Below, piece after piece: positions 37,392-45,668 of a stretch of 64,000 nucleotides of DNA. Source of the DNA: Dehalococcoidia bacterium (GTDB lineage: Bacteria > Chloroflexota > Dehalococcoidia > Lucifugimonadales > SHYF01); the NCBI GenBank assembly GCA_965248595.1, contig CBDFJM010000003.1, positions 10,729 through 74,728 on the forward strand, in the 5' to 3' direction. The notes below the pieces were generated by a model, which saw only the letters and a list, made by a program, of their open reading frames with translations, searched no databases and was not told the origin of the DNA. Made by a program: the position numbers and the translations under genes. Position 1 is the stretch's first letter; each line of letters starts with the position of its first letter.

Positions 37392-38831
37392 ATGCAATGG
37401 AGTGCGGCTGTGGCGGATAGTATACGCGGCTCTCTTTCCACAAGGCGGTTTCCCCTCCTAAGGAACTTCGTTATTGCTAGCGTGATAGCCATTGGACTGG
37501 TCACGCTGGTGGTGAGCTACCTCTTCGTCCGGTTCAGCGAAGCCTCATTTAGAGCGAGGGTAGAGGACCGGAGCTCGGAAGAGGCCGTGCACTTTGCCGA
37601 GATGTTCCATAAAACTGTCTGGATGCCCAGCTTACGAGATACTCCTGATGGCGCCATTCAAGATATCAACCTTTCCATTGTGGACGCCTTTGCCCATGAT
37701 ATCGCTTTTGGGCTTAGCATCGTGGGTGTCACCATAGTTGATCTGGACGGCGTACCTGTCTACTCCACAGACCACAATGTCGCTGGGTCAGGGAATCTGG
37801 CCGATCCCACTTTGTACCAACGCGTTGTGAGGCAAGGTAGGCCCTACTCCGTGCTGGAGCAAAGTCAGAGCATCACATTGCCCACGGGAGCGCAGGAATC
37901 CCTTGATGTGATCAACACAATTACTCCGCTGGTCGACGCATCCGCTGAGGCGTTGCTAGAGGGCAAGGTCGTGGGCATTCTGCAGCTATATCAAGACGTA
38001 ACCACGGACCTGGCTTCCGCCAGAGTCCAGGCTGTGCGGACCGCTATAGTCGGGGCCGTCGGGACCGGGGTGGCCCTGTTTTCCCTCCTGTTCTTGATCG
38101 TCCTTCGGGCCGATGGGGCACTCCGCCGGCAGGAGCAGGAACTGGAGCACGCCCATGCCCAGAACATAGAGTCAGCTAAGCTTTCAGCCATGGGACTCCT
38201 GGTTTCGGGTGTGGCCCACGAGCTGAATAACCCCCTAACGGGTGTCTCGGGCCTGAGCGAGCTTCTGCTCCGTCGCAACCTCAGCGACGATGTGAAAGAA
38301 GAGGTGAGCATGATCCACGACGAGGCTCTGCGCTCCCTGCGGATCGTCCAGGACCTGCTTGTCTTCGCACGCCCCAGCGGTGTGGCTGCCAGAGAACCCA
38401 TCTCCCTTAACACAATCGTGGAAAACGTGCTGAACCTGAAGAAGTACGATCTTACTACACAGAACATTCAAGTGGAGACAACACTGGCCCCCCGGCTACC
38501 CTTGGTAGTGGCCAATCTCCACGCCATTCAACAAGTCGTTTTGAACCTGGTGGTCAACGCTGAGCAGGCGATGGTGGACCTGCACGGAATGGGCCTCTTG
38601 CGAGTAAGAACGGAGCAGGCAGGGTCAATGGCACGCGTCGTTGTTAGCGACGACGGCCCTGGAATCCCCAAGGAAAACCTTGCCAAGGTATTTGACCCGT
38701 TCTTCACAACCAATGCCGATAGCGGGTGTGGAGGTTCTCGCGGCATCGCGAAGGATCGGAGAGGCGGCAGCCCGACCAATAGCAGAACCGCTCATATCCC
38801 AATCCGGACCTGTTCCAGAAAGGGAGCCTGA
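37392..38831 (+). CDS. Sensor histidine kinase with atypical/degenerate C-terminal ATP-lid
   Basis: 479 aa. TM-flanked sensor domain, H-box SGVAHELNNPL, N-box NLVVNAEQAM, G1 VSDDGPGIP and F-box FDPFFTT. No recognisable GxGLGL G2 box in frame. Confidence 0.8.
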   Translation: MQWSAAVADSIRGSLSTRRFPLLRNFVIASVIAIGLVTLVVSYLFVRFSEASFRARVEDRSSEEAVHFAEMFHKTVWMPSLRDTPDGAIQDINLSIVDAFAHDIAFGLSIVGVTIVDLDGVPVYSTDHNVAGSGNLADPTLYQRVVRQGRPYSVLEQSQSITLPTGAQESLDVINTITPLVDASAEALLEGKVVGILQLYQDVTTDLASARVQAVRTAIVGAVGTGVALFSLLFLIVLRADGALRRQEQELEHAHAQNIESAKLSAMGLLVSGVAHELNNPLTGVSGLSELLLRRNLSDDVKEEVSMIHDEALRSLRIVQDLLVFARPSGVAAREPISLNTIVENVLNLKKYDLTTQNIQVETTLAPRLPLVVANLHAIQQVVLNLVVNAEQAMVDLHGMGLLRVRTEQAGSMARVVVSDDGPGIPKENLAKVFDPFFTTNADSGCGGSRGIAKDRRGGSPTNSRTAHIPIRTCSRKGA

Positions 38832-39391
38832 TGAGCAGCCAGCCTAAAAGCATACTGGTAGTGGACGATGAGAGGTCCATTCGCTACCTCCTCTCTAAAC
38901 AATTGGAAGAGCTTGGGTATCAGTGCGAAACAGTCCCCAGCGGGCAGGAGGCTCTGGAACGTTTGGCCCAGCAGGGGGTTGATCTTGTCATGCTCGACCT
39001 CAGGATGCCAGGGATGTCAGGACTGGAAGTCCTGCGACGAGTGCAAGCCGACCATCCCAGCACTCGCGTGGTAATGCTCACCGCCATCGTGGATACTGGC
39101 CTGGCAACCCAGGCCCTGAGCCTTGGGGCCGACGATTACATGACAAAGCCCTACACCCTGGATGAGCTAAGGTCTAGAGTGGAGCGGGCGCTGGATAAGA
39201 AGGACTCCTTGGCCGAGGGTGGGGTGGCTGACTCGTCGCTGAAGGCGGAGGAGAGAATGCTCATCAATGAGCGAGAGGTCACCGTGGATTTGATCAACCA
39301 GCAGGTAAGCGCGTTTCAGCAACTTACCGAACCCGCGGACAAGGGCAAGCAGAGCGCCAGACGTCGCTGGTGGCCTTGGAGTCGTCGCTGA
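38831..39391 (+). CDS. Response regulator, stand-alone receiver domain with coiled C-terminal tail
   Basis: 186 aa. ILVVDDE...DLVMLDLRMPGMSG...MLTA...GADDYMTKP. ATGA overlap with the kinase. Confidence 0.9.
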   Translation: MSSQPKSILVVDDERSIRYLLSKQLEELGYQCETVPSGQEALERLAQQGVDLVMLDLRMPGMSGLEVLRRVQADHPSTRVVMLTAIVDTGLATQALSLGADDYMTKPYTLDELRSRVERALDKKDSLAEGGVADSSLKAEERMLINEREVTVDLINQQVSAFQQLTEPADKGKQSARRRWWPWSRR

Positions 39392-39433: not shown

Positions 39434-39775
39434 CTAAGACGCGGTCTTTGTCTCACTCTGCTGCAAGGCCTCCACAATCCTTTTCCCAAAGAACTCCTCG
39501 TCAGCAATGATGTGCTCCAAGACTTTGCGTGGTGGCCATTCGCCCTCAGCGGGAGCCCGCTCCATGTCTTCGTCCGACAGGCCCAGGAGCAGACCTTCCA
39601 GTTCGCCTCGAGACCTCTGCAAGCTGTGCAGGATAAGCTGGGCCTCACTCTGGTGAACTTCCAAGGCCGACAGTGTCTTCACCAACTGGACAGTGTGCTC
39701 CGCCTCATGGGATATTAGAAGATAGAACATGGCCCTCACGTACCGGGGAATGCGTCCGGCCACGGGCAATGTCAT
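39434..39775 (-). CDS. DinB-family (DinB_2-like) protein; N-terminus uncertain
   Basis: Only the C-terminal ~113 aa of the listed 398-aa ORF look coding (...LISHEAEHTVQ...EWPPRKVLEHIIADEEFF). The remainder is antisense to cysK. Confidence 0.5.
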   Translation of the reverse strand: MTLPVAGRIPRYVRAMFYLLISHEAEHTVQLVKTLSALEVHQSEAQLILHSLQRSRGELEGLLLGLSDEDMERAPAEGEWPPRKVLEHIIADEEFFGKRIVEALQQSETKTAS

Positions 39776-39946
39776 CTGCTCCTCTTTTACGTCTATCAGC
39801 TGCTCTTGAAGCCGCGCCCGTGACTCCCTGAGTTTTCCACCATCTCTGCTAAAGCTCCCATTTAGGTACCTCCTGGTGTTGGTGCGTGAGATAGCATATG
39901 TTACCACGCTTCTCTTTCCTTGACGCTCCCAACCACCCATGCCACA

Positions 39947-40888
39947 ATGGGCCATCTGCTGCGGAGAATCCCCTTGACCAGATTTGCCAGTTCTGTCCTG
40001 GAACACATAGGTAACACGCCCCTGATGCGCCTGTATGCCCTGGAGACGCCCGGCTCTGCGCAGGTGCTGGCCAAGCTGGAGAACCTGAACCCCGGCGGCA
40101 GCACCAAAGACAGGGCGGCCCTGGCCATGATCCAGGACGCTGAAGCCCAGGGCAGGCTGAGGCCTGGCATGACTATTGTTGAGCCTACGGGCGGCAATAT
40201 GGGCATCTCCCTGGCTCTGGTGGGGGCCGCCAAAGGATACAGGGTGGCCATAACCATGCCTGAGAGCGTGCCCATGGAGCGCCGACGCCTGGTGACGCGC
40301 TTCGGCGCGACTGTACATCTCACGCCGGCCATCACCGGCATGGAGGGAGCCATTCAGGCGGCCCAGCGCATGCTTGACCAGGACACCAGGATGGTGATAC
40401 TGGAGCAGTTCTCCAACCCCGCTAACGCCAGAGCGCATCGGGAAGGCACGGGGAGAGAGATCCTGGATGCAACCTCTGGCCGGGTGGACGCTTTCGTGGC
40501 CGGGGTGGGCACAGGCGGCACCATTACAGGCGTCGGCGAGGCGCTGAAAGCCGCGAACGCATCTGTGCTGGTGGTGGCTGTGGAACCAGCTACCTCTCCG
40601 CTGTTGAGCCAGGGCCACGCGGGCGACCACGGCATTCTAGGCATTGGGGCCGATTTCGTGCCGTCCCTGCTGGACCGCGCCATCATTGACGAGGTTGTCA
40701 CAGTCGACACTAAGGATGCCATAGACACCACCAAGCGGCTGGCCCAGGAGATGGGGCTGCTTGTGGGCATCTCCTCTGGGGCCAATGTGATGGCTGCCCT
40801 GCTGCTGGCGAAGCGACTGGGCGAGGGCAAGGTGGTGGTAACGGTGCTGCCAGATACAGGCGAGCGGTATCCCATGCTGACCGTGTGA
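39947..40888 (+). CDS. cysK: Cysteine synthase (O-acetylserine sulfhydrylase, CysK/CysM family)
   Basis: IGNTPLMRL, NPGGSTKDRAA (PLP Lys) and GTGGTITG. Start could be TTG 39920 or ATG 39947. Confidence 0.9.
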   Translation: MGHLLRRIPLTRFASSVLEHIGNTPLMRLYALETPGSAQVLAKLENLNPGGSTKDRAALAMIQDAEAQGRLRPGMTIVEPTGGNMGISLALVGAAKGYRVAITMPESVPMERRRLVTRFGATVHLTPAITGMEGAIQAAQRMLDQDTRMVILEQFSNPANARAHREGTGREILDATSGRVDAFVAGVGTGGTITGVGEALKAANASVLVVAVEPATSPLLSQGHAGDHGILGIGADFVPSLLDRAIIDEVVTVDTKDAIDTTKRLAQEMGLLVGISSGANVMAALLLAKRLGEGKVVVTVLPDTGERYPMLTV

Positions 40889-40971
40889 ACTCAGGGCGCC
40901 GAGCTTCCGAGCTGCGTAACAGCCCATGCTACAATAGACAATGTTTCCCAGCCTGACCCAGGAAGGAGCCT

Positions 40972-42018
40972 ATGCCCCAGGAAGCCATCCGGCTCACCAG
41001 TCTGGCCCATTGCGCGGGTTGAGCCTCCAAATACAGTCCTGAGGACCTGGCGCAGGTTCTGCGCCAGCTACCCAAGATTACCGCCCCGAACCTGCTGGTC
41101 GGGACGGAGACAGGCGATGACGCTGCCGTTTATCGTCTAACGGAGGAACTTGCCCTGGTGCAGACGGTGGACTTCTTCCCTCCCATAGTGGACGACCCAG
41201 ACCACTTTGGCGCTATTGCAGTGGCCAACGCTGTAAGCGACGTCTACGCCATGGGCGGCCGGCCCCTGCTGGGGCTGAACATCGTGGCGTTTCCTATGGA
41301 GCTGTCCAAGGATATTGTGGCCAATATATTGAAGGGCGGCTACCGCAAAGCCGCCGAGGCCGACCTCCTAATCGTTGGTGGCCACACCATAGACGACAAG
41401 GAGCCGAAGTATGGCCTGGCTGTAACAGGCCTGATCCGGCCCGGAGAGCAGGTGACTAACCGTGGAGCCCGGCCCGGAGATGTGCTGGTGCTCACCAAGC
41501 CCATCGGCACAGGCATAATCACCACCGCCGGGAAGGACGGCGTGGTGAAGGAAGAGGTGCTGGCCAACGCCATCGCCGTCATGGAAACACTGAACAGGGG
41601 CGCTTCAGAGGCTATGACGCACGTAGGCGTCAATGCGTGCACGGACGTCACAGGCTTCGGGCTGCTGGGCCACTTGAAGCCCATGATGACAACCAGCGGC
41701 ACCGGTGCCCGCGTCTTCTGGTCCAAGATACCTCTGCTACCCGGCGTCCTGGAGCTGGCCAAACAGGGAATCGCCCCCGGGGGCACCCAGAGGAACCTGG
41801 CGTCTCTGGGGCCCAAGGTGCAACATCATGAATCGCTTTCCCAAGAGGCAAAGGTTATCCTGAGCGACGCGCAGACCTCCGGAGGGCTATTGATGTCAGT
41901 GCCGCGGGAACGGCTGGACCGTCTGTTGGAGGAATTGGAGAAACATGGCGTTGCTGGCACTGCAATCATCGGCGAGGTGTACGAAGGAGACGCCGGGGCA
42001 ATCCAGGTACTTCCATAA
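40972..42018 (+). CDS. selD: Selenide, water dikinase (selenophosphate synthetase), selenocysteine-containing: UGA at 41020-41022 read as Sec
   Basis: ATG 40972 with GGAAGGAG upstream. MPQEAIRLTSLAHCAG-U-ASKYSP... aligns with E. coli SHGAGCGCKISP, and Sec falls on Cys17. In frame with listed ORF 41158..42018 (VDFFPPIVDDP...DVYAMGG). Confidence 0.88.
41047..41067 (+). promoter_or_regulatory. SECIS-like stem-loop for the selD UGA
   Basis: Perfect 9-bp stem CTGGCGCAG-gtt-CTGCGCCAG beginning 25 nt after the UGA. G/U residues lie at the apex, as in bacterial SECIS elements. Confidence 0.6.
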
Positions 42019-42048: not shown

Positions 42049-42240
42049 ATGTTAGAGTTAGAGAAACAGTATGTTGACCAGATGGTAGCTCACGCCCTGG
42101 AGGACAACCCCAACGAGTGCTGCGGAATCCTGGCGGGGCCTCAGGGCAAAGGTGGTAAGGCTCTACCAGATGACACCGCTGCCGTCCACGTGTTCCTCTG
42201 AAACCACACGGGCGTCCATCTCTGATCTGCATGGAGTGTA
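42049..42240 (+). pseudogene. Truncated/frameshifted JAB (MPN/Mov34) metalloprotease fragment
   Basis: Own translation gives MLELEKQYVDQMVAHALEDNPNECCGILAGPQGK, then similarity continues in another frame (VVRLYQMT...) and is lost. No JAMM HxH motif present. Confidence 0.5.
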
Positions 42241-42245
42241 AGTGG

Positions 42246-42734
42246 ATGACTGAAAATCTTGCACCTGTTGAAATTCCGCGGAGGATCCTGGAAGAGGTTT
42301 ATAGAGAAGCCAGGAAGGCGTTTCCCTGGGAGTCCTGCGGGTGGTTAGCCGGATCCCAGGATGGCAACAAAGCAGAGACCGTCCGGCCTTGTGTGAACGC
42401 AGTGATGCTGGGCGCGGGTGGCACGGTGCCCGGAGGGAACGCGGAGACAGCCTACCAGTTCACAGCCCAGGATGCCATTGCCCTCGACAGGAGCTTTGAC
42501 ACCGATACGCCCGCGATTGTCATTTATCACTCTCATCCCAACGGACGGGCGTATTTCTCCCAGACAGACCGACAGGTAGCAGAGGGGCCATGGGGTGACG
42601 GGCCAGCATATCCCGTACAACACCTGGTGGTGGGCATCAGCCAATCGGGGGTGCACGAGGCGGCGCTGTTTGAATGGTCGGAGGAGAATGCAGACTTCGC
42701 GGAGATCGCGCGCTATGATGGAGCGGACATTTGA
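42246..42734 (+). CDS. JAB/MPN-domain metalloprotease (Mec/Mov34-like)
   Basis: ESCGWLAG...IYHSHPNGRAYFSQTD is an intact JAMM motif (HxHx7Sx2D). The start is probably ATG 42246 within ORF 42231..42734. Confidence 0.8.
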   Translation: MTENLAPVEIPRRILEEVYREARKAFPWESCGWLAGSQDGNKAETVRPCVNAVMLGAGGTVPGGNAETAYQFTAQDAIALDRSFDTDTPAIVIYHSHPNGRAYFSQTDRQVAEGPWGDGPAYPVQHLVVGISQSGVHEAALFEWSEENADFAEIARYDGADI

Positions 42735-42989: not shown

Positions 42990-43856
42990 TTGAAACTAGG
43001 TGCTATCTTCCCCCAAACAGAGCTCGGCTCCGACCCCGCGGTCATTAGAGAGCACGCCCAGGCCGTAGAGGAGATGGGGTACGATTTTATTGTGGCTTTC
43101 GAGCACGTGGTCGGGGCTGATCCAGCCCAGCATGAGGGCTACCGGGGGCCTTATACTCACAAGTCCCTCTTCCACGAGCCTTTCGTGCTGTTCGGATACC
43201 TGGCAGCCGTCACGAAGAGGCTGGAGCTCGTGACAAGCATCGTCATTCTGCCGCAGCGTCAAACGGTGCTGGTAGCCAAACAGGCGGCAGAGGTAGACGT
43301 CCTTAGCGGAGGGCGGCTGCGCCTTGGAATCGGCACCGGATGGAACGCAGTAGAGTACGAAGCCCTGGGCCAGGACTTCCACACCCGGGGCCGCCGCAGC
43401 GAGGAGCAGATCGCTCTCATGCGGGCATTGTGGACTCAGGAGGTCGTTACCTTTGAGGGTCGCTGGGATAAGGTTACCGCGGCAGGGATTAACCCTCTGC
43501 CCGTGCAGCGCCCCATCCCAATATGGCTGGGCGGAAGAGCGGAGCCGGTAGTCAAGAGGGTAGGCCGCCTGGCTGATGGCTGGTTTCCTCAAATGCCCCC
43601 CAACGAGGAGGCCCATCAGGCGCTGGAACGAATGCGGGGCTATGCGAGAGAAGCTGGCCGTGACCCGGCCACAATCGGCGTGGAGGCGCGAATTGGCGTC
43701 CGAAACTCCACGCCGCAAGACTGGGCTAAGGCATCGGCAGACTGGCAGAAGCTGGGAGCTAGCCACCTGTCGATGAACACCATGGGTGCCGGCTTCACCT
43801 CCCTGAACCAGCACCTGGATGCTCTACGCCAGTTCCACGATGTTGTGAAGGGATAG
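42990..43856 (+). CDS. Luciferase-like (LLM class) F420-dependent oxidoreductase
   Basis: 288 aa, TTG start. MKLGAIFPQTELGSDPA...EEMGYD...LGIGTGWN..E is typical of the F420-dependent LLM subfamily. Confidence 0.8.
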   Translation: MKLGAIFPQTELGSDPAVIREHAQAVEEMGYDFIVAFEHVVGADPAQHEGYRGPYTHKSLFHEPFVLFGYLAAVTKRLELVTSIVILPQRQTVLVAKQAAEVDVLSGGRLRLGIGTGWNAVEYEALGQDFHTRGRRSEEQIALMRALWTQEVVTFEGRWDKVTAAGINPLPVQRPIPIWLGGRAEPVVKRVGRLADGWFPQMPPNEEAHQALERMRGYAREAGRDPATIGVEARIGVRNSTPQDWAKASADWQKLGASHLSMNTMGAGFTSLNQHLDALRQFHDVVKG

Positions 43857-44434: not shown

Positions 44435-45668
44435 ATGACTTCCTCTTCCACAACGACAGCGATTGAGCCAATACGCCGCGCCTTTCCGGCTGAAAAGGCC
44501 AAGGCCTGGCACTTCAGGCTTCATCCCTACTACACAAAGCAGCCATCTAATGTGGTGGCTGGGTACATTCGTCATTTTTCACCGCCAGGTGGCCTAGTGG
44601 TTGATCCCTTTTGTGGTACAGGCGTCACCGGGGTTGAAGCACTTACCAACAGACGCCGCGCTGTATTGCTTGACCTGGACCCTCTAGCAGCGTTCATTAC
44701 CAGGCAGACCTTGCTCTCGCCAGTGGATTTGGATGCTTTCTGGGATGCCTTTCGCCGGGTTGAGCGCGAAATGCGCCCTATTGTTTCTTTCCTGGGAAAG
44801 GCAACCCCAGAAGAGTTGGACGATTATAAGATAGATGCCTGGTATCCACGCGGCGTCAAACTCCCCTCCAACGCTGACCGTGGCTATGAGGAAGACCTAT
44901 TCAGCAAGCCATCGCTGATCGGCCTGGCCCATCTCAGGGCGGCCATAATGCATGTCAGAGATGTTGAAGCTCGCGAACTCTTGCTGTTTGCTTTTTCTGG
45001 CATCCTTGCCCGCGCCAGTTTGACCTACAGCATTGACTCCAAACATGCTGGAGGAGGAGATAGTGGCATATTTAAGGTATACAGGTATTAGGTCCCCCCA
45101 AGCCTGATTATAGAGACGTTTGGGGGCTATTTGCTACAAGGGCGCGCCTTGTTGCAAGTGCCAAGACGCGGGGAAGCGCTGGCTTCGGTGACTATCCAAT
45201 AGAGGGAGAAACCTTTGCGGTACACTGTGACTCGGCGGAAACCTACTGAAGTATGTAAAACCTAATAGCGTAGACTACATATATACCGATCCGCCGTATG
45301 GGGCGCACATAGCCTACCTGGACCTCAGCACTATCTGGCATGCGTGGCTTGGGTTACACGTTACCCAAGAACAGAGAGCAAAGGAAGCAATTGAAGGTGG
45401 AGAGCAGCAGTTTGATGAGAAACACTATCTTGATGTTTTGGACCAAAGCTTTAAGGCCATGTTTCTGTCACTTAAGGATGACTGTTGGCTCTCCCTAGTT
45501 TTCTATCACAAACAGACAAACCTTTGGTACTCCATACGGGACATGCTTAGATACAGTGGGTTTACCTACGTTAACACCGTGGCTCAGCCACTGTCTAAGC
45601 AGACCTTTCACAAGGTCAAGAATCCCCTAAGAGTGCTTGGTGAAAGAGAAGTGGCTCCGGAAATCTGA
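44435..45668 (+). pseudogene. N6/N4-type DNA methyltransferase, disrupted by at least two frameshifts and abutted by IS3 at its 3' end
   Basis: Motif I VVDPFCGTGVTG lies in frame 2 (44435-45091). The middle segment ...YPIEGETFAVHCDSAE is in a second frame. Motif IV SVDYIYTDPPYG (from ~45243) is in a third frame that joins ORF 45438..45668. A C6 run sits at the first shift. Confidence 0.8.

Follow-up and report, generated by a model that had tools for sequence, protein, structure and literature searches.

A putative selenocysteine-containing selenophosphate synthetase (SelD) in an uncultured Dehalococcoidia bacterium, truncated at its N-terminus in standard gene calls

The DNA analysed here is a stretch of 64,000 nucleotides (hereafter, the window) from an uncultured Dehalococcoidia bacterium (GenBank assembly GCA_965248595.1, contig CBDFJM010000003.1, positions 10,729 to 74,728), whose metagenome-assembled genome comprises 2.39 Mb in 7 contigs and is 89% complete. 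Nucleotides 40972-42018 of the window (plus strand) very probably constitute the selD gene of this organism, encoding selenide, water dikinase (selenophosphate synthetase), an enzyme that would here be a selenoprotein itself. The gene consists of 348 codons plus a stop and starts at an ATG codon (40972-40974, +), the sequence of which was read directly, as was that of a Shine-Dalgarno-like motif, GGAAGGAG (40961-40968, +), which may function as such upstream of it. A single in-frame stop, the TGA at 41020-41022 (+), interrupts the translation at codon 17, where selenocysteine (Sec) is predicted to be inserted, and the remaining frame is intact. When TGA is translated as U, the 348-residue product starts with MPQEAIRLTSLAHCAG-U-ASKYSPEDLAQVL, and many orthologues have their Met start at this very site. 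An earlier interpretation made from the letters alone (hereafter, the sequence-only reading) had proposed this gene, its UGA codon, the GGAAGGAG motif and a hairpin downstream of the UGA; all of these coordinates and sequences proved correct on re-reading.

The read-through product belongs to the SelD family. Its scores exceed the curated NCBIfam equivalog cut-offs for SelD in both profiles concerned, TIGR00476 (384 bits for a cut-off of 125, profile positions 1-309 of 311) and NF002098 (367.3 bits for a cut-off of 299, positions 2-343 of 347), so that the identification made in the sequence-only reading holds over the whole profile, N-terminus included. The SelD profile match starts at residue 7 of the product. 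Two Pfam domains are recognized, AIRS (PF00586, 94.4 bits, residues 48-155) and AIRS_C (PF02769, 71.7 bits, residues 167-345), in keeping with a PurM-like fold of two domains. Among proteins of known structure, the top phmmer match is E. coli SelD (PDB 3u0o, E = 5.9e-79, residues 2-342 against 2-340), followed by SelD of Aquifex aeolicus (E = 9.4e-71). The E. coli protein has the same two AIRS domains, the same glycine-rich loop with Lys20 and the same aspartate motifs, and is collinear with ours over residues 2-342. The N-termini align without gaps, HCAG-U-ASK standing opposite HGAG-C-GCK, which places U17 opposite the C17 of E. coli and K20 opposite K20, in agreement with what had been read from the sequence. 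The DDAAVY, T(V/T)DFF, SD(V/I)(Y/F)AMGG and TDVTGFGLLGHL motifs are conserved between the two proteins (DDAAVY, VDFF, SDVYAMGG and TDVTGFG being identical or conservatively replaced), and we take their conserved aspartates to be metal-binding residues. From this alignment, the UGA codon occupies the position of the catalytic residue in the N-terminal glycine-rich loop.

Standard gene calling misses this part of the protein. The only standard-code open reading frame (ORF) listed at selD under translation table 11 runs from a GTG codon at 41158 to 42018 (+), encodes 286 amino acids and is shorter than the full gene by exactly 62 codons. The public protein record for the 76,886-bp contig (P0003 in our set) has the same 286-residue form and is 100% identical to the truncated ORF, so that the ORF list and the database agree on the loss of 62 N-terminal codons that the sequence-only reading had described. 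The missing residues 1-62 comprise U17 and K20, GDDAAVY, and 15 residues at the start of the AIRS domain; as this domain spans residues 48-155 and the standard-code ORF starts at residue 63, the latter cuts into the first domain of the protein. The problem extends well beyond this genome. The best 120 public homologues of the SelD clade (P0002-P0121) are 276-329 amino acids long and cover 79-94% of the query; they must thus start downstream of the UGA codon, which shows that N-terminal truncation of Sec-containing SelD is systematic in metagenome gene calls.

Comparison with relatives (40 genomes of the same order, representing 39 genera) provides strong support for the full-length gene. Each of the 37 SelD matches extending over the N-terminus has exactly one TGA. 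In the 30 orthologues aligned on the UGA, the TGA falls in the same column and the surrounding xAG-U-A[S/A]K signature is invariant. The peptide encoded 5' of the UGA ([IV][RK]LTxLxxCAG) is conserved at the protein level in these orthologues, and so are, in all 30 of them, the 45 codons that separate the UGA from position 41158, a stretch which contains no start codon. The conservation also reaches far outside the order: of the 80 best-scoring loci in other phyla, 73 have TGA at the same site; these phyla include Nitrospirota, Gemmatimonadota, Marinimicrobia/Fidelibacterota and Thermoleophilia (the remaining seven were not parsed by the search pattern). The segment 40972-41157, on whose conservation the sequence-only reading had made its claim depend, is therefore conserved in orthologues, with the UGA in the same column.

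The genome contains the whole machinery for Sec decoding. SelB is encoded on contig C6 (229968-231821; full length, 354.5 bits for a cut-off of 242) and SelA on contig C7 (724326-725669; 563.6 bits for a cut-off of 268). A tRNA-Sec gene with anticodon TCA was detected by ARAGORN on the same contig (C7:562461-562558) and matches Rfam family RF01852 with 64.9 bits (gathering score 47). This tRNA is 98 nt long and of the bacterial 8+5 form, with 8 bp in the acceptor stem, 5 bp in the T stem and an extended variable arm; it is the sole tRNA with a UCA anticodon in the genome. The genes are thus dispersed, SelB lying on C6, and SelA and tRNA-Sec on C7. The sequence-only reading had supposed that the organism decodes UGA as Sec and had made the presence of selB and tRNA-Sec its other touchstone; both are present and, like SelA, score above curated thresholds. 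We found no second selD in the genome, the only other match to the query being a distant relative of the AIR-synthase type (29% identity).

The same reading had anticipated that other UGA-split genes of this genome would be mis-annotated, and nine further candidates were indeed found. They come from a codon-bias search for in-frame TGA codons in a CxxU or UxxC context, tuned until SelD ranked first, which is therefore biased towards selenoproteins with redox motifs and misses others. Earlier scans without motif context were dominated by adjacent genes in the same frame and by antisense shadows, and missed SelD, the positive control, because thresholds on total and then on local score penalise its 16-codon upstream segment. 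The context-based scan returned ten candidates, nine of which have Pfam support. In eight of these the domain match spans the UGA: a Thioredoxin_3 protein (C6:736072-736821, -; TPT-U-PYCP), a DSBA protein (C6:130157-130816, -; SDYI-U-PWCY, 131 bits), two Rdx/SelW-like proteins (C1:3342-3638, -, YCLG-U-GY; and C6:528509-528826, +, YCHN-U-GY), three DUF3179 proteins (C6:148510-149550, -, VTW-U-PIC, 204 bits; C7:239951-241237, -, VTW-U-PLC, 252 bits; and C7:8822-9829, -, ITY-U-IKC, 187 bits) and a Prx-like AhpC-TSA/Redoxin protein (C7:481975-483093, -; WASW-U-GC). In the ninth, a GrdB-like protein (GRDB, C6:658444-659430, +; ST-U-PVC), the match ends exactly at the UGA. A hairpin is found 15-40 nt 3' of the UGA in each of the nine. 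The TGA of the DsbA-like gene is kept in 14 of 15 homologues from the relatives, and among DUF3179 homologues some contain a TGA while others have no stop, as expected of Sec/Cys pairs (the stop-free forms being judged by the absence of a stop alone). The tenth candidate (C7:242143-242652), with a hairpin of -24 kcal/mol and a QI-U-CAT context, was rejected as it has no Pfam match. According to PMC9312934 and PMC13188914, the families of all nine candidates, DUF3179 included, are already catalogued among prokaryotic selenoproteins.

Downstream of the selD UGA lies a candidate bacterial Sec insertion sequence (bSECIS). A perfect inverted repeat, which begins 25 nt after the UGA, would form a 9-bp hairpin (stem A, 41047-41067, +) in which CTGGCGCAG (41047-41055) pairs with CTGCGCCAG (41059-41067) around the apical loop GUU (41056-41058). 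We compared it with the bSECIS model that goes back to Zhang and Gladyshev, in the form given in the legend of Fig. 2 of PMC13188914. The loop of stem A has 3 nt (3-9 nt in the model) and carries G then U (a G within the first two positions, usually followed by G or U), the upper stem has 9 bp (4-16 bp), the UGA is separated from the loop by 33 nt, 41023-41055 (16-37 nt), and the stem alone has a minimum free energy of -16.2 kcal/mol (at most -7.5 kcal/mol), being part of the minimum free energy structure of the region. Stronger evidence comes from the 30 aligned orthologues. Compensatory double changes affect seven of the nine pairs, and none of 500 shuffles reaches the observed value for any of five covariation measures; in addition, 84% of cells pair in register, against 44% at most after the 3' strand has been shifted by 1-3 columns. 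Compensated variants are exemplified by UUGGCGCAG/UUGCGCCAA in lineage L019, CUGUCGUA/UACGACAG in L029 and UGACGCA/UGCGUCA in L043, and the compensatory changes fall in separate lineages of the SelD tree. It is because of this covariation across relatives that we regard stem A as real; together with the fit to the bSECIS model, it bears out the SECIS-like hairpin at the expected spacing put forward in the sequence-only reading. Scanning the whole window at Rfam gathering thresholds gave no match, a result that says nothing against the hairpin. Another local structure was observed in about half of the relatives (L019-L045), namely a 5-bp hairpin UGAGC-N6-GUUCA which takes in the UGA itself and occupies the first 16 nt from it. 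It cannot form in the genus of the window organism (which has AAAUACAG or AAGUACAG there) and may simply result from conservation of the codons for A-[S/A]-K-F-S.

A second hairpin overlaps stem A and excludes it. This stem B (41042-41060, +) consists of 8 bp between AGGACCUG (41042-41049) and CAGGUUCU (41053-41060), with a GCG loop; in the window it has an energy of -9.9 kcal/mol and a UGA-to-loop distance of 27 nt, and it too falls within the bSECIS constraints. All eight pairs are possible in 13 of the 30 orthologues and, with 86% pairing in the relatives, stem B is as frequent as stem A, with little covariation; in about 7-10 lineages, around a third, it is the sole good hairpin. Under strict base-pairing, 12 orthologues can form stem A only, seven stem B only (with the pattern AGGACCUG-GNN-CAGGUCCU), six both, including the genus of the window organism, and five neither in full; judged by relative stem energy, stem A is preferred in roughly 18 lineages and stem B in about 10. 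The loops of the relatives follow GUN for stem A and G(G/U/C)N for stem B, the one deviant being L041 (CUG). A Val codon within the element tracks these classes through its synonymous third base: it is GTC, which provides a G-C pair in stem B, in all seven class-B lineages and in only one of the 12 class-A lineages, the others having GTT or GTG (hypergeometric probability of about 1.6e-4, uncorrected for phylogeny). The two classes are interleaved on the SelD tree, on which the branches with good support require a minimum of 2-3 changes in each class. Within a single order, the SECIS has thus changed repeatedly between two registers that lie 5 nt apart and exclude each other, and this is the one observation here that is mildly new. 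In our view, the two registers reflect the normal plasticity of a SelB-binding hairpin that lies in a coding sequence and is under loose constraint.

Could the UGA have another meaning than Sec? A true stop, with SelD translated from an internal start such as the GTG at 41158 and the 16-codon upstream ORF being spurious or encoding a leader peptide, is what the standard-code ORF call and the public database model imply, and many genes of this organism do end in TGA. The product of an internal start would nevertheless lack the loop with Sec/Cys17 and Lys20, GDDAAVY and the first 15 AIRS residues, the SelD profile match begins before codon 17, and the codons between the UGA and 41158, with no start codon among them, are conserved as protein in 30 orthologues; the same goes for the peptide 5' of the UGA. 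We thus consider this explanation hardly credible. No more credence can be given to a selD pseudogene, or to a sequencing or assembly error that turned a TGC or TGT (Cys) codon into TGA. The genome is a draft assembled from a metagenome, and the Cys type of SelD is common in prokaryotes according to PMC4561486. The TGA is, however, found in the same column of 30 orthologues from independent assemblies, as the only TGA in 37 of 37 matches, and also in 73 of 80 cross-phylum loci; with more than 100 independent assemblies sharing it, an error is very unlikely. The frame is otherwise intact, and a covarying hairpin lies 3' of the codon. Moreover, the nine other genes relying on Sec decoding require a working SelD, for which the genome offers no second gene.

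Recoding of the UGA as something other than Sec, or not only as Sec, is a different matter: it could involve, for example, near-cognate read-through as Trp or Cys, or a lineage-wide reassignment of the codon. Low-level near-cognate decoding of UGA is known to occur when selenium is scarce. Against this, the only tRNA with a UCA anticodon is tRNA-Sec, dedicated SelA and SelB proteins are present, and the UGA sits at the catalytic Cys/Sec position. Genome-wide reassignment is ruled out by stop-codon usage, as TGA terminates 588 of 1,656 long ORFs (36%) and is thus an ordinary stop elsewhere. Recoding of this kind appears very improbable, if marginally less so than the two preceding explanations. 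The choice between the two hairpins is less clear-cut. Stem B, or an alternation of both stems, might be the functional SECIS in the window organism: stem B pairs fully here (8/8) and agrees with the bSECIS model, the closest clade outside the genus has lineages in which only stem B is possible (L020 and L021), and the Val codon is GTC in all class-B lineages but in only one of class A. Stem A is, however, more stable by 6.3 kcal/mol in this organism and corresponds to its minimum free energy structure, covariation is strong for stem A and slight for stem B, and the genus of the window organism has GTT, which allows only a G-U pair in stem B. We therefore regard a functional stem B as unlikely, and stem A, the more stable of the two, as more likely to be the functional element. 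Were both conformers to compete in vivo, they could constitute a structural switch that tunes how efficiently SelD is completed, instead of a product of neutral drift; this seems improbable, but such competition between two registers would amount to autoregulation of selenium metabolism at the RNA level.

Several points weigh against the interpretation of this locus as a Sec-encoding selD gene with a functional SECIS, or against parts of it. The 3-nt gap between GGAAGGAG and the ATG is short for a Shine-Dalgarno sequence, and a consensus scan around selD revealed neither a sigma-70-type promoter nor an intrinsic terminator, such consensus sequences being uninformative for a Chloroflexota genome. 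Taken as a single sequence, the region 41020-41085 folds only modestly beyond chance (-21.3 kcal/mol, z = -2.36, five of 200 shuffles being as stable), so that the fold suggests a hairpin but does not decide the matter. When run on the UGA-anchored alignment of 30 sequences, RNAalifold returned a trivial structure at -0.87 kcal/mol and no consensus hairpin; this is because two overlapping registers split the lineages, and explicit pair counts were used instead. With two registers in use, the assignment of the functional hairpin in the window organism to stem A is a matter of likelihood. Finally, neither a Sec-containing FdhA nor a selenouridine synthase was detected. FdhA is usually the commonest bacterial selenoprotein and was expected to be the main one here; its homologue (C7:225795-227864, -) has no internal stop and reaches 479 bits with TIGR01591, below the cut-off of 666. 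The profile of the selenouridine synthase SelU (TIGR03167) has no match either. Neither the absence of SelU nor that of a Sec-containing FdhA is proven, the genome being 89% complete. As far as gene content can tell, the Sec trait is apparently kept here without Sec-FdhA and without the selenouridine trait.

These elements are consistent with the following mechanism. SelA would charge tRNA-Sec (anticodon UCA) using selenophosphate, and SelB would carry the resulting Sec-tRNA-Sec, presumably bind the selD hairpin in whichever of the two overlapping registers is used, and compete with release factor 2 in bringing Sec into the A site. Sec would thereby be inserted at codon 17 and enter a flexible, glycine-rich N-terminal loop, in which it would act with Lys20 as the selenium-binding catalytic residue. 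Such a system would be self-reinforcing, as the synthesis of SelD would itself draw on the selenium donor that the enzyme produces. Since no selenouridine synthase was detected and the FdhA homologue lacks Sec, SelD would supply the Sec trait for at least nine other redox selenoproteins.

Closely comparable arrangements are known. The E. coli enzyme has Cys17 in the place of Sec17 and therefore needs neither recoding nor a SECIS. SelD of Aquifex aeolicus (PDB 2yye and 2zod) likewise has Sec at the catalytic site of its N-terminal loop, with an in-frame UGA and an intragenic hairpin, and Haemophilus influenzae provides another example of a Sec-containing bacterial SelD. The gene described here differs from the A. 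aeolicus type in its lineage (freshwater and groundwater Dehalococcoidia), in its hairpin sequence and in the use of two overlapping hairpin registers within its order. Stem A also lacks sequence similarity to the SECIS elements of E. coli fdhF and fdnG. As for frequency, SelD is among the most widespread bacterial selenoprotein families (PMC9312934, PMC13188914), and the sequence-only reading was right, in the light of this and of A. aeolicus SelD, not to present a Sec-containing SelD as novel.

The genes around selD have no evident link with selenium, selA, selB and selC being located on other contigs. The neighbouring ORFs lie at 37392-39391 (+), 39434-40630 (-), 42231-42734 (+) and 42990-43856 (+); the neighbours include a histidine kinase paired with a response regulator, a prokaryotic JAB-domain protein, a luciferase-like monooxygenase and, encoded on the opposite strand, a protein of 398 residues that carries a DinB_2 domain at its C-terminus. 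Further downstream, the ORF at 44435-45091 (+) matches the N6_N4 DNA methylase profile only at positions 160-212 of 221.

The Sec-containing SelD of this organism is thus a real, ordinary and well-known arrangement, and its description is a correction of annotation, not a discovery. It raises no new question, and its main value lies in annotation. The 62 codons, with Sec17 and Lys20 among them, are lacking in the public gene model of this contig and in the best 120 records of the clade, and the same cause has split or shortened at least nine further redox genes of the genome. According to PMC9312934, SelW-like, SelD, Prx-like and Trx-like selenoproteins predominate in aquatic metagenomes, and the selenoprotein profile of this Dehalococcoidia genome matches theirs; the overall pattern, a Sec trait without Sec-FdhA in which Sec-SelD is accompanied by many SelW-, Prx-, Trx- and DsbA-like selenoproteins, fits such environments. 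Metabolic reconstructions of the abundant Dehalococcoidia of freshwater and groundwater that rely on uncorrected gene models would therefore rate the need of these bacteria for selenium too low and misrepresent their thiol-redox proteins.

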